61,636 bases of DNA from a virus (taxonomy: Duplodnaviria > Caudoviricetes): IMG/VR virus record IMGVR_UViG_3300042519_000334, positions 1 through 61,636 of that record, one strand, 5' to 3'. How positions within the stretch are numbered: the stretch's first letter is position 1; the number at the start of each line of letters is the position of its first letter. This document shows, piece after piece, positions 3,881 through 56,467 of this stretch. A program made the position numbers and the translations under genes. A model generated the notes under the pieces. It saw nothing but the letters and a program-made list of their open reading frames with translations. It did no database searches and was not told the origin of the DNA.

Positions 3881-4301
3881 ATTTATCTACTGGGACGACC
3901 CGGGCGATAGCCAAGATGTCGTTGATAATCAAACAGAGAAGAACAACCTTGTAGCTGTCTACGGTACACTCAAGATTGGTAAAGGCAACCATAGCCTTCT
4001 AAGTAGCTCCATCTATATGGGGACTGCTCGAACCAAAGACCTAATGCGTCTATGTGTCGTATCTCTCCCATACTTAGTTAGAGGTGAGTCTGAGGAAGGC
4101 AAGAATGTACTTGTTGAACTGTACTATGTTGACGACAGCACTTTAGCATCTCTTGACCGACTTGAGGGACATCCTGTTCACTACAAGCGTGAGATGATGA
4201 AGTTTACACCTGAAGAGTCAATCTTCTCTAACGAAGTAGAGGCTTGGGTGTATATGGTTGACGAACGCTACGATAATAAAAAATACTACGATGAATTCTA
4301 G
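3873..4301 (+). CDS. Gamma-glutamylcyclotransferase (AIG2-like)
   Basis: VAVYGTLK.G..NH, LDRLEGHP..Y.R and AWVY motifs. Confidence 0.9.
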   Translation: MNEFIYWDDPGDSQDVVDNQTEKNNLVAVYGTLKIGKGNHSLLSSSIYMGTARTKDLMRLCVVSLPYLVRGESEEGKNVLVELYYVDDSTLASLDRLEGHPVHYKREMMKFTPEESIFSNEVEAWVYMVDERYDNKKYYDEF

Positions 4302-11970: not shown

Positions 11971-14900
11971 TTACTTCTTTCTTAATCTGTCGTACTCGTA
12001 CTTGAACTTAGCAGAGAAACTGTATCCAGACTCTTGATAGATTTGTTTTCTAAGGTCTAGTAGCTCATCATCGCTCATATCTCCGTAAAGCAAGTAAACT
12101 TTTTTCGCTCTAGCTTCTTCATCTTTTGAGTATATAATCTCATTAGTATTTTGAGACGCTGAACGCTTCTTAGCAGCAGTTAAGAACGAATCTCTATAGT
12201 ACATTGCATCAACAACATTAGACTTCTTAACTTCTTCCACTTGAAGCTTAGCCTTATTAAGGATAGCTTTTTTATCAGCTTCAGTTTCAGCTTTAATGTA
12301 ATCCAGACCAAGTTCCTGAGCTGAGTCTCTAATTTTCATACGCTTACTTCCTGACTCTTGGTCGATACGCATAAGGTCTTCCTTTTGATTGTATACCTTC
12401 CAGTCTGGGTTTGTCTCACCCCATAGGGATTTACTTACCGACATTCCATTTTTTCCAAGAGCAGCTACGACTTTAGATGCGGCTGACTTGCTTTCTGCGG
12501 CAGACATATCATTGTCGAGTGGCACAACTGATGTAATAATATCTAGCAGTCCGTATGTAGCACCAACAACTAACGACGAGCTTGGGCTAGTTATAACTTT
12601 CTCAACTGACGCCTTAAGTCGAGCAGGTGATACACCGCTCTTCTCTCCAGTGGTTAACTCTTGAAGCTCCCCAGTAACCTTTCCGATAACTTTGTAGAAT
12701 CTCTCTACATTGGGGTCATTGATGCCCTCGTCCATAGGTAGAATCTCGTTGAAGTCCATAGTGACAGCACGGTCCCTGAATAGGTCGTAGTTGGTTAGAT
12801 AGGTCAGCGCCATACTGATAGATGGGACTGATGATGTAATCTCAGACAGTGATGCTCCAGTAGGCATAGCACTCTTAACAGAGTTTAACGCATAACCAAG
12901 CAAGTCATCAGACGGAGAATACTTATCGTTACCCGTAATAGATGCAAGAGCATAACCATTCATAATGTCCATCAGTGCGAAGAATGGGACCATCTGTTGT
13001 GGCTTAGCAATCTTTATGTATGCCCTTCTCTCTTTGCCCTTCTCGTCAGTGTACTTGGTTGGAAGCATAATAATGAAGTAGCGAAGCTTAACTTCATCTG
13101 GAATTTCATCCATATCGTCATCACCTACGAGAGCATTAACCATAGCAAGTATCATCATACCAGCCTGAGCCTGCAAGAACTTAGAAGCAAACTTTTTTGG
13201 GTTGGCTCTAATGTAGTCAGCAGATACTCTGAAGCCTTGGAAGGCAGAGTTGATGTATGGCTTGAATACCTCAAGTCCCTTAGTAAGGTTACCTCCTTGA
13301 GCGAAGTCAATGATAGAACGAGCTTTGTTTACTGCCTTAGCCTTGATTAGTTCTAGGTCGTCACCAGTAGGCTCCTGACCGTACTTGCTTTCAAACTCAG
13401 CTGCTGCGTCGTCTCTGAATTTCTTGTATACAGCTACACGGAATCCAACTTCGGAAATCTCACCTATACTAGACAGTCTGTCTACGAACTTATCCAGCTT
13501 GCCCTTGTCTGCTCGGAGTGAACCCGGACGGCCATCAGTTGATAGGAAGTCCATACCGCCACCCATCTCCATATATTCTTGGAAGTACTTGTCGTCAGCC
13601 TTAAACGACTTAACTCCCTTAAGGAAATCCCTCATAAGGTTGTACGAACCAAAGTAGATATTCTGATTATCGTAAACATCAGTGAAGAACAAGATGTGTC
13701 CGAAGTCACGAGGTAAGTTCCTCACAATGAACAATGGGTTGGCACGTGTAGCCAATAGCTTCAACAGTGCAGAACCAGTGATGTAACTGATTGCCTTAGT
13801 TGTCTTAGGTCCAAACTCTAAGAGTCTGTTGGCTCCATCCCACTCACGCTTAAGGTCAGTACGAAGCTGGAACTTGGACTGCGCGCCATTCTCGTAGAAA
13901 TATACAGTCTCAAAACCAGTTGACGCATCACCGCTAGGGTCTTGCGGTTTCACCCACTCCCTATTTGTGTTATCTAGGGCAGCCTTAAACAACGCCTTAT
14001 TTGCTCGGTTCTTTAGGATTCTAGACGATGCTGAGGCAGCGTATGCAGCAAGCAAGAATCTAGAGTCCATAATCGTATCGTCAGCACTACCTTCTCTGAT
14101 GGCCTTAACTTGGTCTCCACTCAATCCGTAATCACGTACTGATACATCGTTATCACCGAAGTCAAATGCGTGGTTCAGGAACACACGTGGAGAGTAGTCA
14201 AAGTCTTTAATCTTGTCGTACAACTCTTTAGTGATGAGACCATTCTTGTATACGTCGTCAAGGATGCTTCTAAACTCAGCGAAGTATGCATCAGCACGCT
14301 TGTTAAGCTCCTCGAAGTTTGCAACTTCTCTAGATAGTCTGCTAAGTTCTGCAATCGCTCCCTCTTTGTCGATGTATGAATTGTTCTTTCTATCCTGAGT
14401 GTGGCGAGGACGATTCGTTTCAGCAAGCAAACCTTGAAGTCTCTCGAATTCAGCAGTTGCTTTCTCGAGTTCAGCCTTAAGCTTATTCTTCTTCTCTACG
14501 TTTACGTTGCTAGCTAGCGATGCCACTCTAGATGAGGCATAGTCCATATCGACCTTAGCCTGAGCCAACTGCTCGGTAATACTAGCTCTCCTGTCGTCAA
14601 ACGACTGGTCAACCTCGATTACACGACGAAGGAATACAATCTTATTGAGAGCCTTAACGGCATCCTCAGATAGTCCTCCGAAAATCTTTCTATCGGCTTT
14701 GTTTACAGAATACTTTGCACGAGCACTTGCTCCAGCCTTGTTCACAAGAAAATCATAGGCTCCGTCAACTCTTGCGTTCAGAAGCTCACGCTTGATGTTA
14801 GACTGCCTATCAAACAGTGCATTGCGAAGCTTTCTTACATTGAATACGCTCTTGTACCAAGGCTCTTCGTAAACCCTGTCCTCGAACTGCTTGTAGATGT

Positions 14901-17900
14901 TGTCAATGTTTGCGGCAGCAACTCTCTTGGGTCCCATACTGCCGTCCAAGAAGTCATTGTATACTTCTCTAGCTGAGTAGTCAGATACTCCGAGCTGAGA
15001 CATTAGGTTAACAAACTCATCCTCAGAGATGCGAGGCACGAGTCTTCCATTAGTATAATCAGATACACTCTTTAGGTAATCGTACTCGTTGCCTCCAGCT
15101 TGCAGGCGGCTCATACCTTTCTGCATAGCCTCTGGAGTAATCGTGAATCCGAAGTTGCGAAGAGTCTCTACTACCTTTTTGAATGTTTCTGGACTCCAAG
15201 CGTTCAAGTAGTGAATCTTGTGGACTCTATCTACCTTATATCCATCGTCAGTAAACAGTTTTGCATCCTCGCTACCTTTCTTCTTGGTGTGGTCAGCGAA
15301 TCGAACCTCAAATGTTCTAGCAATCTCCTTGTCTGCGTCTCCACCTTTAAACTTTAAGTATCTACCAGAGCTTGCGTCTGAGTCATTCTTTACTACATCA
15401 GTGTACTCGAGCAAGAAGCGCATATTCTTCTTTGGCTCGTTCTGTAGCGAGTTATAGATTGCGTTAAACGCATTGAAGGAGTTAAGGTTAGACTTGTCTA
15501 CAAGCTGATATTTCTCCTTAAGCTTGGCTTTGTTGCTTATTTTTTCTTCGGCTTCGGAAAGAAGTCGATGTAGGTTTTCCCAAGATTTTCCTTTGTAGCG
15601 TTGCGAATTCCGTGCTTCGCCAATAATTCGTCCATAGTCAGACTCTTGGATGAATCTGACGTCGGCTTGTTGGGTTGTGAGTTCTGCATCTTTAGTTAGA
15701 TTGTTTTCTTTTACGAAGTTAAAGAACTTGCTTATGTTTTCCAAGTATTCATCAAGAGAAAGTCCCCAAGATTCTATTTGAGTATTCCAAGCGAATGATA
15801 TTCTGTTCTTTCCTGACTCGATGGTGTACGAGAATCCAGCGTTGAGACCCATCTCGTCAATCTTGTCGAGTAGTGACTTCTGAGCCTTAGTCTCAAGGTT
15901 GATTTCAGTGAGAAGACCAGTTCCTTTCTCGTCTACTCTTGAGATGAGTGCTGAGTTTTGAATCTCTTTAGCCAATGCCCCGTTAAGTGCCGCAATCAGT
16001 TCAGCATCATCCATAGAGATAGAAGCTTCAATTCGACTTGAAGTCTCTACGGTAACTCTACCTGTTTCGAAGTTTCTGTATCCACCGATGTTATCGTACT
16101 GCTTGATTGTCTCAGCGAGGTTAGGGTCGAAAGCATCTACGATTCTAGTCTGCTCTTTCTTTAGGGCCACGTATGCTTCATCACTCTTAAATGCGGCCTT
16201 AGCTTCATCTACGTTTGTAATCTTAGTCTCAACATATGGCGCGGCACTGATTGAGAACGCCCTAAGGCTGTTAGCAACCTTAGCTTTACGTCTAACCTCA
16301 GTAATGGCTTGAGCTTGCTCTTCTTTGGTTCTAGTACTCTTTTTAGACTTAGCAGAACTCACATACATAGAGCCAGCAACAGATGTGGCAACAGACGTAG
16401 GGCTACCCGAGGCAGAAACAAACTGTTGCTCTGAAAATATCTTATCTACGTAATATTTACCATCAAGTAAGAATGGGTCCTCACCGTGGAACTTACTGTT
16501 GAACTGCGGGTGTACGAATTTACCATCCTTACTCTTAGACAGGTATTCTTGTGCGCCCATATACGGGTCATTCACAAAGAACCCACTCAATGAGTACCCA
16601 CTGTCTCCGTCACCCTTAAGGTTGTCAACGATATTCTTATCTAAGTACTCGCTAAAGAACGCCTTATTATTGAATCCAGCTCTAAGTAGTGCATTTCTAG
16701 CAGCTGCGCCCGGACCAGATACCGCCTGTACTCCCGGGATGAAATTCTCAAGGAAATCACGACGAGTCTTGAAGTCCATCTTATCGTTTGAAGAAACCAA
16801 GCGCTGTAGCGCATCGTGTCCTTCTTTAGTCGTGAAGTCACTGCTTTGAACAGCTTCAGAAAGCATTCTAATCTTTTTGATTGTAGCTTGTCTGATGGCC
16901 TTGTTTTTCTCGTAATCGCTTTTGCCTTCCTTGCTGGCGATGTTCTTCTCAAGCTTGGCCACTTCCTTCTCAACGAAGTCGTTAAGCGAGCTCTTGAATT
17001 CTGACTGAGAAATATCTCCAGACTCAATAGCCTTAGAGATTCCATCAGCAAAGAACTTAGCCCCGTATGCGTTACCAAAGGCAGCACCCGGAGATTGAAT
17101 CATAACGAATACAGATACTGGCTTTCCAACGTGTTCTGGATTAGAAGCATCTCGCTCTTCGGCTACACGCTTGATAAGGTCACCGAGCTCAGTAACCTTG
17201 TTATCCGCCGATGCAGCGAAGCCAATTTTATCGTCAATGTTCTGCTTGATAAATGAGTATCCAAAACCTCCGTAAACATCTTGACCGTCAGCCGCGTGAC
17301 GGATGGCTGTTCCGTCTGAGTTGATGATTACGAATGCACCGCCTGAACGCTCAAGGACAGAGTCCATAGATAGTTTGTCTTTAACATCGACAACCTCTAC
17401 GTTCTTAGGCATTTCATCATTGAACGAGATATCTACAGGCGTGAACTGCTGCTTCTTATTTGTGGGTCCTCCATCGTATACGCCTCGTGCTATTACAGAG
17501 CCGAGCTCTAGGTCTTCCACGTTAACTGCTACACCACCGCCAAGCGAGTTAGAGATTGAACGCATAGCATCAATCAGTTGGGCGCTAGTGGGGGCTACAT
17601 TGAACTTAGTGCCGAGAAACTTATTGATTATCTCAAGGAACTTAGTGGCGAGCGAGCGCTTAACCTCAATGTCAATCTGATTTGACGCAATGAGTGATGA
17701 CAGCTCAGTAACAAACTCATCGTCTAGTTCTGCCTCAGAAGCACCCATAGCTTGATACTTCTCAATGAAGTTACCCATATACTGGGTAAGCGCCTTGTCT
17801 TTGAGTATAGCACTACGAAGCGTCTTAGCTAACTTCTTGGTCCCTTCTACTCCGAGTATATCTGGTGCTACTTCGTGGACTGCTTCGTGGTAAACAGTGT

Positions 17901-20064
17901 TTGAAGCGATGGCTGGTACGAACAAGTGAATCTCGCTAATGCCACCTTCTTCTTTGACGTGCATACCTCTAGCAAGCACGTTGTCTCCAGATGCCTTCTT
18001 AAATGACTCAGCGTTAGTATGGGATACTACACGTACATCTCTACCAGACTTGGACAGTGAATCAATCACGTTCTGGATAGACTGAACGCCAGACAGAACG
18101 TCCTGCTTGGTTGTACCAGATAATGCGAAGAAGTCGTCTGCCTTTTCGTTTACGTAGTTAGACAGCCAGTCAATAGCATTGCCAGCAGTTGATTGGTTAA
18201 TCTTGAGGCTACGAACCTTAGGACCTAACTCCTGCTCAACTGCTTGCGTTACTTCTTGAGGTGTTTGAAGAACTCCACCTGCCTGAGTCGTTTGAGCGCC
18301 TGCTCCTTCGATAGGTTGGGCTTGCTGAGTGGCTTGCCCTGCTTGGATAGGACTTGATACTTGTTGTTGCGCTTGGCTATCATACTTCTGTTCGATTTTG
18401 GCTTTCTCTGCTAGAGCATTCTTAATGTCCGAAACTAACTGAGCCTTAGCCTCAGAGCTAGTGAGCTTACTGTAGTTCTTCATCCCATTAGAGATGGTCT
18501 GGTCAAGTTTTATTGTTTTCGTAAGGTCCTCTGCCGAGTAGTTAGAATAGAATGCCTCTGCATCCTGCTGCATTTTCTTTTCTTTTTTCCTAAACTCTTC
18601 CAGCCTCGGCTCTAGCAACTTCTTTTCTTCTACAGATACACTAGGGTCATTTTTGATATTTTGGATTTCTTGAATCTTATTACGAACCTCAACTCTGTCG
18701 CCAAATATTGGGGTACGAAGCATTGCAGATGGACCTTTGGTTGCTACATATTGAAGACCGCCGACTCCACCACCCATAGCCGCACCAACGAATACAGACT
18801 CAGCAATATTCATATAGTCAACCTTGTCTCCAGCAAGTACTTTCTGTAATACTTCTTGAGTTACACCAACAATACCTTCTTCAAGTCCCTCCTCTAAAGG
18901 CTGTCTAGCTATCTGTGGTAATTTACCGAACAGCATATCACCAAACTCTTTCTTTGGCATTTTAGCCACGTCTTCAGCTGTGCCAAAGATTGCACGAACT
19001 GCTTTAATATCAGATGCAAACAGTTTCTCAGTTGCATACTCAGCAAGACCTACTCCTGTAGCGTATATTACCTTCTCTATGTCATTATACCTGTCGTCAT
19101 TTACTACCTCGTTAAACGCGCTACCTGAAGAAATAACACCAAGTGCGGCGGGGCCAGCTATAACTCCAGCAGCTAGATTCATACTCTGGTCAAGCATATC
19201 CATACCAAGCAGAGTGAGGTCCCCCTCAAGAGCCATACCTAATGAGCCCTTCTCTATCTGTTCATCTGTGTATCCAAGATTAAATCTAGATGCATACGTT
19301 TGTATCGATACAAGTTTAGCTGCATCTGTACTTGCTCTCTGAAAAATGTTTCCTTCCAAGAACTTATCTGCATCAGCGCCGACTAAGTAGTATGGAACTC
19401 TAGCTGCCATATCTACAAATCCAGTAACTCCCGAAATAAGAGAGTTGAATCCTCTACTTAGGAAACTACTTTCTTCAGCGATTTTCTTCTGCTCTTTAGC
19501 AAACAGTTCGATTTGAGACTTCATATCTGCATCTATAGAAGACACAGCAGCTGGGTTTATTGAACCGTTTTCATTGAATAGAGACGTGGGAGCGAGATTA
19601 TCCTCATCCAACTCCTTATATGCTACGTATGTTTTTTCAAGCTCTGGACGTATCTTTTCAAAGTCTTCAGCTGTTTTGACTGATGACAACTTCATTGCCA
19701 ATTCAGTACCAGCTTCTGCTCTTTGAGTTGTAAGCCAGTCTCGTCTTACGTTTTTAGTTTCCTCCTTTGGGTCTTGAGCTCCCTGAAAACCAACACCTTG
19801 AGCCTGACGGAATCCAGTAGGGCCCCAAGTTACTTGCTGACCAAGTTGATTAGTTTTCTGAGAATCCGAAGAAGAAGGCCCTTGAGCCTGCGTGGATTGT
19901 GATTCCGAACCGGAAGGTCTTTTTTTTTTACTGCCGTAGAAGTTAGCCGCTAACGCAATATCGTCGTCGGCGTAACCATTCTTTTTCATTGCGGCAGAGA
20001 CCTCGTCAATTGACTTCCCACTGGCGTAGGCCTTCTCAAGAATTGCCTTAAGTTCTTCGTTCAT
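11971..20064 (-). CDS. Giant polyvalent, probably ejected virion protein (2697 aa)
   Basis: Zincin-like YHEAVHE; C-terminal LPD38-like region (IIDFAQGG...PYINSAFQG); lies after the tail genes. Confidence 0.7.
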   Translation of the reverse strand: MNEELKAILEKAYASGKSIDEVSAAMKKNGYADDDIALAANFYGSKKKRPSGSESQSTQAQGPSSSDSQKTNQLGQQVTWGPTGFRQAQGVGFQGAQDPKEETKNVRRDWLTTQRAEAGTELAMKLSSVKTAEDFEKIRPELEKTYVAYKELDEDNLAPTSLFNENGSINPAAVSSIDADMKSQIELFAKEQKKIAEESSFLSRGFNSLISGVTGFVDMAARVPYYLVGADADKFLEGNIFQRASTDAAKLVSIQTYASRFNLGYTDEQIEKGSLGMALEGDLTLLGMDMLDQSMNLAAGVIAGPAALGVISSGSAFNEVVNDDRYNDIEKVIYATGVGLAEYATEKLFASDIKAVRAIFGTAEDVAKMPKKEFGDMLFGKLPQIARQPLEEGLEEGIVGVTQEVLQKVLAGDKVDYMNIAESVFVGAAMGGGVGGLQYVATKGPSAMLRTPIFGDRVEVRNKIQEIQNIKNDPSVSVEEKKLLEPRLEEFRKKEKKMQQDAEAFYSNYSAEDLTKTIKLDQTISNGMKNYSKLTSSEAKAQLVSDIKNALAEKAKIEQKYDSQAQQQVSSPIQAGQATQQAQPIEGAGAQTTQAGGVLQTPQEVTQAVEQELGPKVRSLKINQSTAGNAIDWLSNYVNEKADDFFALSGTTKQDVLSGVQSIQNVIDSLSKSGRDVRVVSHTNAESFKKASGDNVLARGMHVKEEGGISEIHLFVPAIASNTVYHEAVHEVAPDILGVEGTKKLAKTLRSAILKDKALTQYMGNFIEKYQAMGASEAELDDEFVTELSSLIASNQIDIEVKRSLATKFLEIINKFLGTKFNVAPTSAQLIDAMRSISNSLGGGVAVNVEDLELGSVIARGVYDGGPTNKKQQFTPVDISFNDEMPKNVEVVDVKDKLSMDSVLERSGGAFVIINSDGTAIRHAADGQDVYGGFGYSFIKQNIDDKIGFAASADNKVTELGDLIKRVAEERDASNPEHVGKPVSVFVMIQSPGAAFGNAYGAKFFADGISKAIESGDISQSEFKSSLNDFVEKEVAKLEKNIASKEGKSDYEKNKAIRQATIKKIRMLSEAVQSSDFTTKEGHDALQRLVSSNDKMDFKTRRDFLENFIPGVQAVSGPGAAARNALLRAGFNNKAFFSEYLDKNIVDNLKGDGDSGYSLSGFFVNDPYMGAQEYLSKSKDGKFVHPQFNSKFHGEDPFLLDGKYYVDKIFSEQQFVSASGSPTSVATSVAGSMYVSSAKSKKSTRTKEEQAQAITEVRRKAKVANSLRAFSISAAPYVETKITNVDEAKAAFKSDEAYVALKKEQTRIVDAFDPNLAETIKQYDNIGGYRNFETGRVTVETSSRIEASISMDDAELIAALNGALAKEIQNSALISRVDEKGTGLLTEINLETKAQKSLLDKIDEMGLNAGFSYTIESGKNRISFAWNTQIESWGLSLDEYLENISKFFNFVKENNLTKDAELTTQQADVRFIQESDYGRIIGEARNSQRYKGKSWENLHRLLSEAEEKISNKAKLKEKYQLVDKSNLNSFNAFNAIYNSLQNEPKKNMRFLLEYTDVVKNDSDASSGRYLKFKGGDADKEIARTFEVRFADHTKKKGSEDAKLFTDDGYKVDRVHKIHYLNAWSPETFKKVVETLRNFGFTITPEAMQKGMSRLQAGGNEYDYLKSVSDYTNGRLVPRISEDEFVNLMSQLGVSDYSAREVYNDFLDGSMGPKRVAAANIDNIYKQFEDRVYEEPWYKSVFNVRKLRNALFDRQSNIKRELLNARVDGAYDFLVNKAGASARAKYSVNKADRKIFGGLSEDAVKALNKIVFLRRVIEVDQSFDDRRASITEQLAQAKVDMDYASSRVASLASNVNVEKKNKLKAELEKATAEFERLQGLLAETNRPRHTQDRKNNSYIDKEGAIAELSRLSREVANFEELNKRADAYFAEFRSILDDVYKNGLITKELYDKIKDFDYSPRVFLNHAFDFGDNDVSVRDYGLSGDQVKAIREGSADDTIMDSRFLLAAYAASASSRILKNRANKALFKAALDNTNREWVKPQDPSGDASTGFETVYFYENGAQSKFQLRTDLKREWDGANRLLEFGPKTTKAISYITGSALLKLLATRANPLFIVRNLPRDFGHILFFTDVYDNQNIYFGSYNLMRDFLKGVKSFKADDKYFQEYMEMGGGMDFLSTDGRPGSLRADKGKLDKFVDRLSSIGEISEVGFRVAVYKKFRDDAAAEFESKYGQEPTGDDLELIKAKAVNKARSIIDFAQGGNLTKGLEVFKPYINSAFQGFRVSADYIRANPKKFASKFLQAQAGMMILAMVNALVGDDDMDEIPDEVKLRYFIIMLPTKYTDEKGKERRAYIKIAKPQQMVPFFALMDIMNGYALASITGNDKYSPSDDLLGYALNSVKSAMPTGASLSEITSSVPSISMALTYLTNYDLFRDRAVTMDFNEILPMDEGINDPNVERFYKVIGKVTGELQELTTGEKSGVSPARLKASVEKVITSPSSSLVVGATYGLLDIITSVVPLDNDMSAAESKSAASKVVAALGKNGMSVSKSLWGETNPDWKVYNQKEDLMRIDQESGSKRMKIRDSAQELGLDYIKAETEADKKAILNKAKLQVEEVKKSNVVDAMYYRDSFLTAAKKRSASQNTNEIIYSKDEEARAKKVYLLYGDMSDDELLDLRKQIYQESGYSFSAKFKYEYDRLRKK

Positions 20065-30435: not shown

Positions 30436-31611
30436 TTAAAATCGAAATCGCATCATTGAGTCAGACTCTCCGATGATTTGGCGAAGCTGCTCCTCTACAT
30501 TGTTACCCGACTGTACGTTTCCTACGTTAGGTGTATTCACCTTCACGTTTGCGGCAGTCTCTACAACCTTGCGCTGTCCATCGCTCATACCTTGCTGATA
30601 AACAGCCTTGACAATTTCGTCAATGTTATCAACTACAGTACGATGCATATTGAACATCTCGTGGTTCCAGCTTCCGTCGCGGTCGACATACTGGTCAAAG
30701 TAACTCTCTAGATTAGCGTTTTTAGATTTGAGTGTCTCACGATACTTGTCGCCAAGTCCGAAGGTAAATGTCTTCTCGCCCGGAAGCTCGAAATCAATAC
30801 CGTCAAGAGCGTCAGCTTCTTGCATCATAGTAGATACCCACTGCTCGTCAACAAACGATTCGACTTGCGGCTCTTGCCCAGCAGTCCTTTCGACTGGCTT
30901 GAGGTAGTTGCTGCGTAGCCCATCAATCTGCTTTCTAGCGTTACCTGCGTCAATCTTTAGCTGAAGGGTCGCCATCTTCTGCTCCTTCTCATCTAGGAAT
31001 TCGCTGTCAGTCTTGTACTTCGCCGATACAAGCATTTCAACTTCATCCCGTGACAAGTCTGGAAAGTCGTTCTGCATCTGGAGCTTCACTACTGATAAGT
31101 CGTCCATTTCAGACGGATTCAGTGACTGGTATAAGAACCAATCTTGTGGGTCGCGGCCAGTTTCTTGAACAAACTTCAGAATAGGCTCAAGCCTCTCATC
31201 GATTGTCGCTGGTTGTTCTAAACGTGCGAGGATGCTATCCAAGTCAAGACCTACCTGCTCCTGCAAGTAAGAATTGACGAACTGGTTAACCTCCTCGTCC
31301 GTGAGTTCGTCGGTGGTTGATTCGTCAGAATCTCCCGTGTCTTGCTGACGATATACGTACCTACTGTCATCAGTTGGTTCTGAGTCGTCGGTAGCGACGG
31401 GCTCAGTTGGTTCTGATGGTTCGGTAACGCTTTGGTCAGCGGTAGAACCTTCGTTGCTGTCATCGGTAGCAACGTCACCGTTTGTGTTATCGGGCTCGAC
31501 AATTGTCGGCTCGATTGGTTGTTGGTCCTGAGAAGGCTCAGCGGGTTGGTCAACAATGTTGAGACCCATATCCCTCACAAGGTCCTCAAGGCTTGAAATA
31601 CCATCGGCCAT
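30436..31611 (-). CDS. Putative capsid scaffolding protein
   Basis: Very acidic disordered N-terminus, helical core; immediately upstream of the capsid gene. Confidence 0.65.
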   Translation of the reverse strand: MADGISSLEDLVRDMGLNIVDQPAEPSQDQQPIEPTIVEPDNTNGDVATDDSNEGSTADQSVTEPSEPTEPVATDDSEPTDDSRYVYRQQDTGDSDESTTDELTDEEVNQFVNSYLQEQVGLDLDSILARLEQPATIDERLEPILKFVQETGRDPQDWFLYQSLNPSEMDDLSVVKLQMQNDFPDLSRDEVEMLVSAKYKTDSEFLDEKEQKMATLQLKIDAGNARKQIDGLRSNYLKPVERTAGQEPQVESFVDEQWVSTMMQEADALDGIDFELPGEKTFTFGLGDKYRETLKSKNANLESYFDQYVDRDGSWNHEMFNMHRTVVDNIDEIVKAVYQQGMSDGQRKVVETAANVKVNTPNVGNVQSGNNVEEQLRQIIGESDSMMRFRF

Positions 31612-52270: not shown

Positions 52271-52874
52271 AAGCAGTTCCTATCCACAAGAATACTCATT
52301 TAACTGCTCGTATACAGTATTCTACTGTTGTTTTCACGTTTTAGAAACACATATAGTAGTAGGTGGGTGATGGATACTTTTTTAATTCGTACGAGTTCTA
52401 GGTACCGTGGGGAGAATTATACAAGAGCGACGCTGACGAACCAACTCCGAAACCGAATCGCAAACCCAACCCCCTCGTAATCAGCGCGTTACGTTCAAAC
52501 TTTTTAGCGTTTTGTCTATAGGTAGGCGCTCAAGTAGAGTATCTATTCTATGTCGGCTAGGCGTTCGTTTACTGAACGTATTCAGGTCGTTTGCTGTAGA
52601 AAAAGGTAAACTTTTCGTGTACTGAACGTATGCTTTTTTTCGTGGGTGTGGTCGGTCGTAGACCTGCATCAATCCCCTCTCTACTTTTCCCCACTTTTCA
52701 CCACTCGTTCCCTTCATCTTTCTTAGTACGTTTCGCTGTATGTTTCGTGTATGTTTATTTAGTATACTATAGTAGACAGGGCCTCAGTTAACGATTACGG
52801 CAGGAATTATACTAATAGTTTAAACAGCGGAAAAAGTATGCTTTTGCCCGTATTTGGTACATATTGGGTCGGGT

Positions 52875-53839: not shown

Positions 53840-53891
53840 ACTGCCGCTTGGAGTGCACATCGTGCATAGGGTTCGAGTCCCTACGGCAGTC
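53840..53891 (+). ncRNA. Minimal tRNA-like element (acceptor stem plus T arm, no D stem or anticodon loop)
   Basis: ACTGCCG/CGGCAGT 7 bp, TAGGG-TTCGAGT-CCCTA T arm contiguous with the acceptor 3' strand, TGCAC/GTGCA mini-hairpin, TGG linker. Confidence 0.7.
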
Positions 53892-53923
53892 AAACTTTAA
53901 CCACTAATCTAAAATCAATCACT

Positions 53924-54133
53924 ATGAAAATTAAAGAAATCGCCATTTTATTTCTTCAATTCTTATTCGTAACCACCATAATCCTACTTCCATTTGTTAT
54001 TGTCTTTTCGTTGGCAGACGAAGACCCGCGTGAGAGAATAGAAATAGAAGATGGAACGAGAGTAATTACAATGGACGGAGACACAATCGAAGTTCACGCA
54101 TACAAATTTTTGTACGCATACAAGGTTAACTGA
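53924..54133 (+). CDS. Small membrane protein
   Basis: N-terminal TM helix; its stop TGA lies in the hammerhead core. Confidence 0.7.
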   Translation: MKIKEIAILFLQFLFVTTIILLPFVIVFSLADEDPRERIEIEDGTRVITMDGDTIEVHAYKFLYAYKVN

Positions 54134-54174
54134 TGAGCGCTTTAATAGCCGAAACGTCGTGAGACGTCTTAACC
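54124..54174 (+). ncRNA. Type I hammerhead ribozyme (HHR1)
   Basis: GGTTAA-CTGATGA-stem II-GAAA-CGTC GTGA GACG-TC-TTAACC; predicted GUC cleavage after 54168. Confidence 0.9.
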
Positions 54175-54198
54175 AAAAACAATTTAATTCTTTTCGTT

Positions 54199-55722
54199 AT
54201 GAGAGTTACCAATATCGTATCAGGCCGTCAGATTGAAATCCGCCGCTCTTACTACAACGAGCAGTTCAACTTCTACTTCGGTATCAACAACGACTTCTTT
54301 GTGTACACCTACGCCAACAACGAAGGTGAACTTAACCGCACTCGTTTCCCTCGCGCACTCAACGCCGCTGAGTGGGGCATCGACCTTCGTACGGGCACTC
54401 ACTCGTCAGCAACATTCGAACTGCGCGGTCAACAAATTCTGCGAGGTCGCTACTTCCGTAGCGAGCAGGTATCTGAGCAACGCATCTTAGGTATTCCGCA
54501 CGTTACGCTAACTAATGATGAGAAGGCCAACTTCGCTGTTCGTGTGGCAGAGTCAAGCGGACACAACTCAAACGTGTTTGTATCACTGCTCATCGGGGAA
54601 GTACTGCATACAACTGACCTTGTCGTTCGTAATTACTCAACTACTTCGGCGAAGTTCTACGATGCGAACGGAGTGTCTCACGTGCTAAATTTCCAAGACA
54701 ACGAGTACGGCCACGTTATGTCTGCAATTCGTGAAGGTCGCACTGAGTACTTAACAGGTCGCGACCTGTTAGGCAATACGTCAATCTTCGCCAACGCTGA
54801 GATTCAGGAGCGCTTCGGTGCAGCCCCTGAACTTAGCGGTTACCACGGCCCATCACGCAACACCGAAATCTTCAACGATTCATCAGTTGAGTGGTTCGTA
54901 GGTTTCGAGGTCGAGAAGGAGGACCTGAATGTTCGCAACCGCTGCGCTCGTGCTAACTGCAACTTGGGTGACGGATGGATTGCAGAACGCGACGGCTCAC
55001 TCGATTCATCGACAGGTGTCGAGGTCGTGTCACCTGTACTCAACCTGTTCGATACGAAGACATTGTTCGAGCAGTTCGAGAAGTACGATTGGGTTATGAA
55101 CGCAGAGTACTCACGCCGCTGTGGTGGCCACATCACCATCAGCCGTCGTGGAATTTCAGCCGATGACCTCGTCGACAAGTTGGCTCCGTTCGTGCCTATG
55201 CTTTTCTCGCTATACGAAGGCCGCCTGTCCAATCAGTACAGCGGAGTTCAGAGCAAGGACGAAATCAAGCGAGGTTCACGCCGCGCCATCAACAACTGCT
55301 CACGTGCATACAATAACCGCAAGGAGGCAGTTGAGATTCGCATCTTCAGCGCAGTATCTACGCTCGAGTCAATTAAGTTCCGCACGAAGTTGGTTCAGTG
55401 GATATGCGCTCACATCGACAAGGGCACGTTCACCACGTTCACTCAGGTGGCCGATGCTATGTTCAACGACAAGAAGTTGAACAAGTTACTTCGTCAGCAG
55501 TACAGCGCTGAGAAGTTAGCACGTAAGCAGGCACTCACCTACGTGTTCGGCGGATGTCTCGAAGGTCAGTCACCGAGCGAGTTTCTCACCGATGCTGACA
55601 ACTACGACCGCACCATCGAGCGTATGAAGCGAGCCTACGACAGCGTACAGGGCTACGTTCGCCGCGAGGTCGAGAGCAAGTTCGGTACTTACTCAGTCAA
55701 TAAGGCCGCAGGTAAGTTGTAA
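54199..55722 (+). CDS. Putative amidoligase (COOH-NH2 ligase, Amidoligase_2-like)
   Basis: GFEVE, ERDGSL, GVEVVSP, CGGHI and VEIRIF motifs. Confidence 0.8.
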   Translation: MRVTNIVSGRQIEIRRSYYNEQFNFYFGINNDFFVYTYANNEGELNRTRFPRALNAAEWGIDLRTGTHSSATFELRGQQILRGRYFRSEQVSEQRILGIPHVTLTNDEKANFAVRVAESSGHNSNVFVSLLIGEVLHTTDLVVRNYSTTSAKFYDANGVSHVLNFQDNEYGHVMSAIREGRTEYLTGRDLLGNTSIFANAEIQERFGAAPELSGYHGPSRNTEIFNDSSVEWFVGFEVEKEDLNVRNRCARANCNLGDGWIAERDGSLDSSTGVEVVSPVLNLFDTKTLFEQFEKYDWVMNAEYSRRCGGHITISRRGISADDLVDKLAPFVPMLFSLYEGRLSNQYSGVQSKDEIKRGSRRAINNCSRAYNNRKEAVEIRIFSAVSTLESIKFRTKLVQWICAHIDKGTFTTFTQVADAMFNDKKLNKLLRQQYSAEKLARKQALTYVFGGCLEGQSPSEFLTDADNYDRTIERMKRAYDSVQGYVRREVESKFGTYSVNKAAGKL

Positions 55723-55754
55723 GATGTCCCCTCCGTGTAAGGGTGGTTAAGGTG

Positions 55755-55786
55755 AGCAGGCGTTGCACGGAGCGCCCTGCTTTTTT
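55755..55786 (+). terminator. Intrinsic terminator whose loop is complementary to upstream sequence
   Basis: AGCAGGCG...CGCCCTGCT followed by TTTTT; loop TTGCACGGAG pairs with CTCCGTGTAA (55731-40). Confidence 0.6.
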
Positions 55787-55805
55787 CACTATCACGAATC
55801 AAATT

Positions 55806-56006
55806 ATGAAACACGAACTAAACGAAATGATGCGAGCCTACGAAAACTACCTGAGTAAGGTATCGAGGTTCATCGAAGCAACCGACGAAACCGAACGCTA
55901 CAAGTTGATTGCGTTCGATATAATCGAGCGGCAAAGTATCGACCTCGAAGAAAACTTGGAGGCCGCATACGAAACGCTAACGCAATATCTAGAAGAACGA
56001 GGTTAA
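55806..56006 (+). CDS. Small acidic helical protein
   Basis: ATG after an A-rich leader; its stop TAA lies in HHR2 stem I. Confidence 0.7.
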   Translation: MKHELNEMMRAYENYLSKVSRFIEATDETERYKLIAFDIIERQSIDLEENLEAAYETLTQYLEERG

Positions 56007-56051
56007 CTGACGATGGCTTGAGTAGCCGAAACGCTGTGAAGCGTCTTAACC
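56001..56051 (+). ncRNA. Type I hammerhead ribozyme (HHR2)
   Basis: GGTTAA-CTGACGA-T-GGCT TGAGT AGCC-GAAA-CGCT GTGA AGCG-TC-TTAACC; predicted GUC cleavage after 56045. Confidence 0.92.
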
Positions 56052-56065
56052 ATAAACTAATTAAG

Positions 56066-56467
56066 ATGAACGCTTACAAATTCACCCTTACAATCACAAA
56101 TTCTAACACCTTCATTATTAACGCAGAAAACTATAAGGAGGCGATGAAACTTGCTTACGACAATGGTTTTGCAGATAGAAATGCAGTTAAAGACCTTTGC
56201 GTTCCAACCGAAGTTTACTCAGAACTAACTTGTACTGAAAGCGAAACACCTGAGGGACTAATTCGTGTTTGGACATATTTTAACGCATCGGAAGAAACAG
56301 AGATAGAAGAATTCACGAGTGAGTGGTCTACGTTATTAGGTACGGAAGTCACTTACGACCTCGACCTATCCAACACCGATGAAGATTCTTGGTACTGCGA
56401 AACATTCGTAACGCAAGCGCAAATCGATGAGTTCAATATGAGCGAAGATTGGTTCACCATTCAATAA
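56066..56467 (+). CDS. Acidic hypothetical early protein
   Basis: ATG 20 nt after the HHR2 cleavage site. Confidence 0.7.
   Translation: MNAYKFTLTITNSNTFIINAENYKEAMKLAYDNGFADRNAVKDLCVPTEVYSELTCTESETPEGLIRVWTYFNASEETEIEEFTSEWSTLLGTEVTYDLDLSNTDEDSWYCETFVTQAQIDEFNMSEDWFTIQ

Follow-up and report, generated by a model that had tools for sequence, protein, structure and literature searches.

Hammerhead ribozymes have been described in phage DNA before. Perreault et al. (2011, PLoS Comput Biol, PMC3088659) described multiple hammerheads that flank prophage genes; the examples tested, from Clostridium, Azorhizobium and Agrobacterium, were found to self-cleave both in vitro and in E. coli. That paper proposes that such ribozymes process long transcripts into single-gene mRNAs, and also considers circular or spliced products, which were not detected. 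A review takes the same view of prophage hammerheads (PMC6765202), and the role of hammerheads in DNA genomes is still called largely unknown (PMC6765202, PMC13725137). Retrozymes and viroid-like RNAs (PMC7761336; PMC4918200) have a segment that is flanked by two hammerheads of the same orientation and that could rebuild a hammerhead from its ends; they are eukaryotic RNAs, either non-coding or replicons, whose circles were shown experimentally (PMC7761336), and circles from phage hammerheads are not mentioned in the accessible part of the same source. Type I hammerheads also occupy short intergenic stretches in fungal and plant RNA viruses, which depend on eukaryotic translation, with the cut placed a few nucleotides ahead of the start codon of the following ORF; matches in DNA phages were set aside in that work as already described (PMC13725137).

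The locus studied here belongs to a 61.6-kb freshwater phage with direct terminal repeats; the whole 61,636-nt stretch of DNA that was analyzed is referred to below as the window. As in the prophages of PMC3088659, close-set hammerheads bracket a single gene or short gene block in phage DNA, although the source here is a freshwater phage and not one of the prophages tested there. Taken alone, the two window ribozymes, designated HHR1 and HHR2, are thus ordinary members of an already known phage arrangement, with the topology and core of Rfam family RF00163 (Hammerhead_1). Unlike in retrozymes, the segment between them is an ordinary phage coding region, and the ribozyme pair is not conserved. 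The region contains the following features:

53840–53890, + strand: tRNA-like minihelix of 51 nt, made up of an acceptor stem of 7 bp, a short hairpin and a T arm whose loop reads UUCGAGU
53924–54133, + strand: 69-aa ORF from the ORF list, terminated by the UGA inside the HHR1 core CUGAUGA; a swappable small-gene slot
54124–54174, + strand: HHR1, type I hammerhead read from the sequence, with a predicted cut between C54168 and U54169
54199–55722, + strand: 507-aa ORF from the ORF list, with its ATG 30 nt past the HHR1 cleavage site
55755–55791, + strand: terminator-like hairpin with a U6 run, found by a scan, between the 507-aa and 66-aa ORFs
55806–56006, + strand: 66-aa ORF from the ORF list, whose UAA stop is the UAA in the GGUUAA of HHR2 stem I
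56001–56051, + strand: HHR2, type I hammerhead read from the sequence, with a predicted cut between C56045 and U56046
56066–56467, + strand: 133-aa ORF (counted from the ATG at 56066), which starts 20 nt past the HHR2 cleavage site

Both ribozymes have the same strand order (5′ strand of stem I, core, stem II hairpin, GAAA, stem III hairpin, GUC, 3′ strand of stem I), in which stem I is an open helix and loops close stems II and III. HHR1 is composed of stem I GGUUAA, the core CUGAUGA, stem II GCGCUUUAAUAGCC, GAA, stem III ACGUC-GUGA-GACGU, C17 at position 54168 and UUAACC; in HHR2, GGUUAA is followed by the core CUGACGA, stem II UGGCUUGAGUAGCC, GAA, stem III ACGCU-GUGA-AGCGU, C17 at position 56045 and UUAACC. 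Each copy contains the full core (C3, U4, G5, A6, N7, G8, A9; G12, A13, A14; the A15.1-U16.1 pair; and C as H17), the positions of which are invariant across the alignments of the family described below. The initial annotation had proposed two type I hammerheads with identical stem I, and this description holds in full; the cleavage sites that it predicted and the 1877-nt segment between them (54169–56045) were likewise confirmed from the sequence. Stem I and the flanking A residues are the same in HHR1 and HHR2, whereas the two copies diverge in stem II, loop II and stem III; both of the stem III differences are compensatory. Stem II of HHR1 is imperfect: after a G-C pair comes a C that is bulged or mismatched, and then three base pairs. 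HHR2 carries an additional U between A9 and stem II; a comparable base is found in 22 of 125 family members and is U in 18 of them. An additional nucleotide next to stem II can be tolerated in a viroid hammerhead. The folding energy of the two window copies is ordinary (z = −0.83 and −1.77).

The window contains four occurrences of the sub-pattern CTGANGA-N8-30-CGAAAC, where 0.23 would be expected; none of 100 shuffles reached this count. Other hammerhead features are absent from the core-pattern matches at 52433 and 59889, which were dismissed as chance. We built a covariance model (R1) from 125 distinct family members, both window copies included; with it, HHR2 scored 67.0 bits and HHR1 66.1 bits, and the next-best match in the window scored 12.5 bits. 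A scanner that required at least three contiguous stem II pairs retrieved HHR2 only, and a bulge-tolerant scanner retrieved both copies. The Rfam search that had been suggested as a check recovered no hammerhead: none was reported when the whole window was scanned at the gathering score, nor at E ≤ 10 when positions 53900–56300 and 55990–56062 were scanned and RF00163 was run alone, so that neither copy was recovered even at that relaxed cutoff. Since RF00163 matches relatives of the window copies in two other loci (L148 and L033) at 19.9–30.2 bits (E down to 0.00024; gathering score 34), we take the silence of Rfam to be a limit of the model and not evidence against the motif. The relatives also matched RF03152 (RAGATH-1 hammerhead) at a sub-threshold 23–29 bits (threshold 56.3). 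The additional base beside stem II probably accounts for the window copies being missed. A blastn search of a phage database with the region gave no match, and sites retrieved by a promoter scan of the window were no commoner than expected by chance. The heptamer UUAACCA was considered as a general leader or promoter word and rejected: 21 copies are present in the window against 7.9 expected, but only those at 53897, 54169 and 56046 precede start codons. An origin of the ribozyme by insertion, with TTAAC duplicated at the target, was suggested by the palindromic GGTTAACC and by two further copies of AGGTTAACCA in the window, and was rejected because stem I is non-palindromic in most family members.

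The two copies belong to a very large, phage-borne family. Scanning of 227 sequences (226 fetched loci and the window) revealed 328 copies in 207 of them. Stem I is exactly 6 bp long in 316 of the 328, with a distal G-C pair, a conserved A on its 5′ side and an A on its 3′ side, and loop II is 5 nt long in 110 of 125 copies, with the consensus U-N-A-R-U. The fixed stem I and the loop II consensus are indirect hints of a stem I–loop II tertiary contact that may give fast cleavage at low Mg2+. The GGUUAA/UUAACC form of stem I is common to ribozymes in at least 117 viral contigs, where stems II and III are highly diverse; this sub-family is scarce in prokaryotic genomes, with nine stretches in genome contigs. 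In 125 copies of the TTAACC type, 97.8% of the cells that should pair do so, and stems II and III contain 364 double-change cells against 101.7 in shuffled alignments, a value matched in none of 500 shuffles. All six pairs of stem I covary (score 0.780 against 0.149) in a set of 113 copies that were not chosen by stem I sequence, and stem I reaches 5 bp or more in 103 of 106 pattern matches with good stems II and III that were collected with no stem I requirement. Together with the compensatory stem III changes in the window, the family covariation bears out the earlier suggestion that the structure is under selection.

Placement between genes was analyzed for 306 non-redundant copies, with 306 random positions as the control and an ORF of at least 40 aa required after the ATG. 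An ATG is located 11–25 nt past stem I in 215 of the 306 copies, as compared to 27 of the 306 controls. The upstream ORF ends at the UAA of stem I (position +3) in 82 copies, at the UGA of CUGA (position +7) in 56, and at position −2 or −3 in 67. The leaders are A-rich at their start, with 57% A in the first 12 nt as compared to 29% overall. Segments that separate neighboring ribozymes are about one small gene long (medians of 452 and 620 nt). Given the tight intergenic placement and the spacing to the start codon, the best reading is constitutive cutting of a polycistronic transcript. Segmentation of the transcript, which the initial annotation had offered as the simpler alternative to a circular product, is thus supported by the family-wide anatomy.

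We therefore think it likely that HHR1, HHR2 and their relatives are intercistronic RNA-processing modules that would cut the phage transcript into gene-sized mRNAs, and that the two window copies are, by the same estimate, active and constitutive type I hammerheads. A polycistronic transcript of the replication and small-gene block would be made from the + strand, and each ribozyme would fold meanwhile into a fixed 6-bp stem I, a stem II of about 4 bp with the U-N-A-R-U loop and a stem III of about 5 bp with the GUGA loop. Cleavage after C17, at 54168|54169 and 56045|56046, would fall about 35–40 nt past the stop codon of the upstream ORF, which lies inside the ribozyme, and 20–30 nt ahead of the start codon that follows. 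The message 5′ of the cut would retain its stop codon and end in the compact ribozyme fold with a 2′,3′-cyclic phosphate; the downstream one would begin with 5′-OH-UUAACCA, followed by a short, A-rich, unstructured leader. The weak, AU-rich stem I of 6 bp would let the products part. From the anatomy, conservation and placement of the ribozymes we infer both the cleavage and its benefit to the phage, namely that neighboring genes may be uncoupled in stability and translation and their start regions insulated from upstream context. Whether a 5′-OH end stabilizes or destabilizes an mRNA depends on host RNases. In synthetic insulators of the RiboJ type, a self-cleaving ribozyme placed before the ribosome-binding region removes upstream RNA context; RiboJ is an engineered part, and its likeness to the phage ribozymes is functional only.

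Four close relatives of the window were found (L005, L006, L240 and L241), one of which, L240, stops short of the HHR2 site. HHR1 is base-for-base identical in L240 and L241 and absent from L005 and L006. In L241, this 100% identity is seen although the neighboring gene product is 91% identical and the upstream ORF is unrelated: the slot of the 69-aa ORF is occupied by an unrelated 64-aa ORF that stops at the UAA of stem I. HHR2 is kept in L005, L006 and L241, with N7 free to vary; relative to its homologue in L005 and L006, it differs by one double change in stem III (U-A to C-G), the DNA being otherwise 98% identical. L005 and L006 lack both the 69-aa ORF and HHR1, yet contain the 507-aa gene and HHR2. 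The pair, whose conservation the initial annotation had raised as a point to be checked, is not conserved across these relatives: both ribozymes stand around the gene in L241, and HHR1 is missing from L005 and L006.

What stands directly 5′ of the 507-aa gene in L005 and L006, where HHR1 would be, is the tRNA-like minihelix. In the window, the sequence ...UUUAACCA... comes after the minihelix, and 21 nt further on the 69-aa ORF begins with its ATG. The minihelix folds with −20.9 kcal/mol (z = −2.34), is not called as a tRNA by ARAGORN or Rfam, and is kept in all four relatives, with a compensatory hairpin variant in L006; similar elements are present in other ribozyme-bearing loci. We read the minihelix as a probable further type of processing signal on this transcript, plausibly for RNase P/Z. 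Its presence in the place of HHR1 fits a need for processing at this site and not a need for a ribozyme pair.

Inside the segment between the ribozymes, the terminator-like hairpin folds with −21.9 kcal/mol (z = −2.29) and is 100% conserved in L005 and L006. It may end most transcripts, in which case HHR2 may act on read-through RNA only. The 507-aa ORF had been labeled an amidoligase gene, and this label is weakly supported: a match to PHROG 2443 was obtained at E = 0.0078, and structural look-alikes from the atlas meet the bar for PF12224, but no amidoligase was found in Pfam, where no family matched at E ≤ 0.01 and only UPF0147 appeared, at E = 0.012. A tblastn search of the phage database with the protein gave one weak match, to a hypothetical protein. 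The product is possibly a distant Amidoligase_2-like protein.

A different outcome of double cleavage, a circular mRNA, was the main proposal of the initial annotation. On this reading, the 1877-nt segment would use its 5′-OH UUAACC terminus to pair with the GGUUAA of HHR2 and rebuild a hammerhead; the reverse reaction or a host RtcB would then join the ends, leaving the 507-aa and 66-aa ORFs on a circular message that resists exonucleases. The bracket arrangement and the circle idea are both stated already in PMC3088659 and so neither is new. What speaks for such a circle is the compatibility of the ends: stem I and the flanking As are identical in HHR1 and HHR2 while the other parts differ, the two ribozymes are kept around the gene in L241, and, in a sample unselected on stem I, 16 of 35 adjacent pairs are cross-compatible against 3.9% for random pairs (about 12-fold). 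Among 54 same-locus pairs, 17 share stem I, as compared to two that share the stem II sequence and three that share stem III. On the other hand, 19 of the 35 adjacent pairs are unable to cross-pair, 134 of the 207 ribozyme-bearing loci contain one ribozyme only, and L005 and L006 retain the gene and HHR2 without HHR1; given the single-copy loci and incompatible neighbors, a ribozyme pair is not what the family needs. The proposed circle would contain the conserved terminator-like hairpin, a rebuilt hammerhead would be expected to re-cut, with the AU-rich 6-bp stem I favoring product release, and a search of the phage for RtcB (PF01139) gave no match. Perreault et al. (2011, PMC3088659) sought circular or spliced RNAs from similar prophage arrays and detected none. 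Four RNA-labelled runs (of 24) provided 19 short, low-depth contigs, which covered neither site adequately, contained no joints and lend support to neither cleavage nor circles; two runs were probably DNA. One contig from an RNA run matched only the 54-nt ribozyme stretch 54123–54176, and, its flanks being unrelated, its ribozyme belongs to another phage. Stem I cross-compatibility is thus the only point in favor of a self-excising circular mRNA as the function of the pair, and with several results against it we consider this function very improbable. We regard as just as doubtful the broader view that identical stem I is selected because processed RNAs interact, a segment closing on itself or different ends re-joining; if it were true, phages would make circular or shuffled protein-coding mRNAs using hammerheads alone.

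The sameness of stem I may have another source, compatible with cleavage, if the ribozymes and the minihelix double as standardized boundaries at which small genes are exchanged by recombination. Stem I alone has its strands at opposite ends of the element, and a hybrid arising from an internal crossover would work only if both parents had the same stem I; a standard stem I would then be favored in a recombining gene pool, and the identity of stem I in HHR1 and HHR2 would be explained without RNA ligation. This agrees with the different contents of the slot between the minihelix and the identical HHR1 (the 69-aa ORF in the window, the unrelated 64-aa ORF in L241, nothing in L005 and L006), with the wide occurrence of GGUUAA/UUAACC beside diverse stems II and III, and with stem I identity of 31% within a locus against 1.8% between loci, stems II and III being different. 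Local duplication, i.e., shared ancestry, could yield the same pattern, however, stem I differs in 37 of the 54 same-locus pairs, and the crossover argument is itself our inference; we hold this role to be possible, but less probable than not. The departures of HHR1 stem II and of the HHR2 inserted U from the canonical junction could also be taken to mean that one or both ribozymes cut slowly or conditionally, as regulated switches or relics, and neither copy is reported by Rfam; slower phage variants, perhaps regulated, are discussed in PMC3088659. Yet HHR1 is unchanged in L240 and L241, every core nucleotide is intact, and the recurrence of the additional base in the family argues for its tolerance. 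Weak, conditional or decayed ribozymes are therefore unlikely, if somewhat less so than a circular message.

Segmentation of the transcript by constitutive hammerheads thus remains our preferred reading. The within-genome enrichment of shared stem I sequences stands as a concrete observation. In the literature searched, we found no report of circular mRNAs from phage hammerheads, of the GGUUAA stem I or of fixed start-codon spacing, though the supplementary alignments of PMC3088659 may hold the sub-family. The family offers an unusually clean anatomy, with a 6-bp stem I, a stop codon in or just before the ribozyme, an ATG 11–25 nt further on, an A-rich leader and interchangeability with a tRNA-like minihelix. 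This anatomy makes the hypothesis that phage mRNAs are segmented and insulated by hammerheads directly testable in a defined system.

The virus record is complete (61,636 bp) and has direct terminal repeats. Its gene blocks and the elements considered here are as follows:

11.5-48.9 kb, minus strand: packaging and structural genes (terminase, portal, virion proteins)
~49 kb across the ends to 10.7 kb, plus strand: block with primase/helicase, ribonucleotide reductase and many small ORFs
53840-53890, plus strand: 51-nt tRNA-like minihelix: acceptor stem (7 bp), short hairpin and T arm (loop UUCGAGU); fold -20.9 kcal/mol, z = -2.34
53924-54133, plus strand: 69-aa ORF
54124-54174, plus strand: type I hammerhead HHR1
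54199-55722, plus strand: 507-aa ORF
55806-56006, plus strand: 66-aa ORF
56001-56051, plus strand: type I hammerhead HHR2

As can be seen, both ribozymes are located within the plus-strand block. The structural block includes one 2697-aa ORF (11971-20064, minus strand). At least half of the sampled words of the window were present in 14 runs, and near-identical DNA was found in many lake and freshwater metagenomes.

The initial annotation had described two hammerheads with identical stem I, a GUGA loop and a GUC site, and the bases at 54124-54174 and 56001-56051 match that description exactly. Each element starts with a 6-bp stem I (GGUUAA/UUAACC) and the core CUGA(U/C)GA, followed by a short stem II hairpin, GAAA, a 5-bp stem III with the GUGA loop, and GUC. 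From this layout, cuts are predicted between 54168 and 54169 and between 56045 and 56046, which yields the 1877-nt intervening segment noted earlier. The two copies align without gaps and differ at N7, at the base following A9, at one stem II position and at two loop II positions; two stem III pairs are changed on both sides, i.e., the changes are compensatory, as had been noted. Minimum-energy folds gave a three-way junction for both copies, with energies that are not unusual (z = -0.83 and -1.77).

The core sub-pattern occurs four times in the window versus 0.23 expected; the two further matches were rejected as hammerheads, other hammerhead features being missing. We scanned for copies of the TTAACC type with a pattern consisting of the core, 10-20 nt, CGAAAC, 10-16 nt and GTCTTAACC, which matched at least 117 viral contigs. 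GGTTAA, which is not part of the pattern, was present upstream in 145 of 149 matches in the listed loci. When 125 distinct copies are aligned, stems II and III show heavy covariation: pairing reaches 97.8% of cells (23-42% in slid controls), and double changes were counted in 364 cells versus 101.7 in shuffles, none of 500 shuffles attaining the observed value. The covariance model derived from this alignment retrieved only HHR1 and HHR2 from the window (67.0 and 66.1 bits, the next hit scoring 12.5 bits), scores that are high partly by construction because both copies were in the training set. In addition, a double change in stem III (U-A to C-G) separates HHR2 from its homologue in two loci encoding the 507-aa protein (L005 and L006), the DNA being otherwise 98% identical. 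The description in the initial annotation is confirmed, HHR1 and HHR2 being real hammerheads.

An Rfam search of the window, a check proposed in the initial annotation, returned no hammerhead family at the gathering score or at E<=10. Family members from loci L148 and L033 score 19.9-30.2 bits against RF00163 (gathering score 34) and 23-29 bits against RF03152 (gathering score 56.3); Rfam therefore detects the family below threshold only. HHR1 and HHR2 are probably missed due to an extra base after A9, found in 22 of 125 TTAACC-type copies (18 U, as in HHR2; 3 G, as in HHR1; 1 A).

A second scan, with a pattern lacking stem I, matched at least 120 stretches, 107 of those listed being new loci. 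Good stems II and III were present in 106 of the 127 matches in the listed new loci, and of these 106, 103 have a stem I of at least 5 bp and 94 one of exactly 6 bp, with very diverse sequences. About 13 of the 120 stretches among the matches listed were TTAACC loci found again; GGUUAA/UUAACC is therefore a common variant, accounting for roughly a tenth of the family, and is not universal. Covariation extends to all six pairs of stem I in 113 copies retrieved with the stem I-free pattern (score 0.780; shuffles 0.149, none of 500 reaching the observed score). A generic scanner applied to 227 sequences (226 fetched loci and the window) found 328 copies in 207 of them. Of these copies, 316 have a stem I of exactly 6 bp; stem I is nearly always preceded by A, capped by a distal G-C pair and followed by A; H17 is C in 310 and A in 18. 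Loop II is 5 nt long in 110 of the 125 TTAACC-type copies (consensus U-N-A-R-U). The fixed stem length, conserved cap and conserved loop suggest, at the level of sequence, a tertiary contact between stem I and loop II.

Some phages (viral contigs L228, L148, L033, L149, L159) carry same-strand arrays of 4-5 family hammerheads, ~250-1000 nt apart, sometimes in blocks with a common stem I; in L228, two copies with the 3′ strand TGATGC are followed by three with CAGTGC. A 182-nt contig (record 1) from the RNA-labelled wastewater run X15 matches only the 54-nt HHR1 region (54123-54176), is without the extra base and has flanks unrelated to the window, which shows a near-identical ribozyme in another phage from a different habitat. 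In prokaryotic genomes the sub-family was rare, with nine stretches, every one in a record titled metagenome-assembled genome (MAG).

The 69-aa ORF ends with the UGA of the HHR1 CUGAUGA, and the 66-aa ORF with the UAA of the HHR2 GGUUAA. The downstream ATGs lie at 54199, 30 nt past the HHR1 cut, and at 56066, 20 nt past the HHR2 cut. Of 306 non-redundant family copies, 215 are followed, 11-25 nt past stem I, by the ATG of an ORF of ≥40 aa; among random control positions the figure is 27 of 306. The stop codon of the preceding ORF is located at +3 (82 copies), +7 (56 copies) or -2/-3 (67 copies), and A makes up 57% of the first 12 nt beyond stem I versus 29% overall. The median spacing of neighbouring ribozymes is 452-620 nt. 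This anatomy is that of an intercistronic processing module, in which the cut would leave the stop codon of the preceding ORF on the 5′ fragment and would provide the next gene with a short, unstructured leader. UUAACCA follows both hammerhead cuts (54169-54175, 56046-56052) and the minihelix (53897-53903), at all three sites 14-24 nt upstream of an ATG; TTAACCA occurs 21 times in the window versus 7.9 expected, the remaining copies lying inside coding regions. The 10-mer AGGTTAACCA, a stem I without an enclosed ribozyme, has two copies within long ORFs (1536-1545, plus; 31283-31292, minus). AGGTTAAC is enriched in the window (9 versus 2.2 expected), an excess that may be compositional.

Four loci encode the 507-aa protein (91-100% identity). 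L240 is identical to the window and contains HHR1, but its sequence stops short of the HHR2 site; both ribozymes are present in L241, HHR1 being identical at every base. L005 and L006 have HHR2 and are devoid of HHR1 and of the small ORF; directly upstream of their 507-aa gene is the same 51-nt minihelix (3916-3966) that precedes the 69-aa ORF in the window. Neither ARAGORN nor Rfam called a tRNA at 53840-53890. The minihelix is kept in all four relatives, with a compensatory hairpin change in L006. Ribozyme-bearing loci (L014, L041, L044, L161 and others) were found to contain 12 distinct minihelices, 41-58 nt long; for nine of them an ATG follows after 10-40 nt. The T-arm motif of L044 occurs four times, ~500-700 nt apart. 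The minihelices resemble a further class of intercistronic processing signal, with RNase P or RNase Z as possible processing enzymes. The slot between minihelix and HHR1 holds the 69-aa ORF with its hydrophobic N-terminus in the window (53891-54123) and an unrelated 64-aa ORF in L241 (300-543); the slot after the minihelix contains no ORF in L005 (3967-4000) and L006. It looks like a hypervariable small-gene cassette site between constant RNA elements. Processing signals thus persist at these junctions; the gene enclosed by them is exchangeable, and so is the type of signal itself.

Type I hammerheads are established in bacteria and phages (PMC13725137 and PMC7761336). PMC3088659 (Perreault et al. 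2011) describes multi-hammerhead brackets around prophage genes, with cleavage in vitro and in vivo, and already holds both ideas on their role, transcript segmentation and circle formation; a review (PMC6765202) repeats segmentation and calls for more work. HHR1 and HHR2 are further members of this known arrangement. Our literature search, with supplementary alignments outside its scope, found nothing on a GGUUAA stem I, fixed start-codon spacing or phage-hammerhead circles in the parts of the sources available. The initial annotation had put forward a circular mRNA made from the segment between the ribozymes. HHR1 and HHR2 do have the same stem I, and in a sample not selected on stem I it is common to 17 of 54 same-locus pairs versus 1.8% of pairs between loci, while only 2 of 54 have a common stem II sequence and 3 of 54 a common stem III sequence; full cross-compatibility is seen in 16 of 35 adjacent pairs versus 3.9% of random pairs. 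However, it is absent in the other 19, the HHR1-HHR2 pair, whose conservation the annotation had proposed to check, is missing in two of four relatives (HHR1 is absent from L005 and L006), and 134 of 207 loci, which are partial genomes only, have a single ribozyme. The segment contains a fully conserved terminator-like hairpin with a U6 run, RtcB was not found in the phage genome, and a rebuilt ribozyme would re-cut itself. According to PMC3088659, circular or spliced products were not detected when the same idea was considered there; contigs of RNA runs gave 0 joints at a coverage far too sparse to count. We regard the circular mRNA as unsupported and very improbable. Segmentation of the transcript, the simpler alternative in the annotation, is likely the mechanism and is the best supported one, through the family-wide placement of stops and starts.

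The shared stem I may have another origin. Stem I is the sole helix with strands at opposite ends of the element; therefore, a DNA crossover within a ribozyme gives a working hybrid only if both parents have the same stem I. The swapped ORF beside the unchanged HHR1 suggests that ribozymes may serve as cassette junctions; in that case, phages recombining within one gene pool would come to use a standard stem I, with the local hairpins free to drift. The same pattern could also result from duplication history. What is worth pursuing is the regularity seen across the family and the sameness of stem I within genomes.
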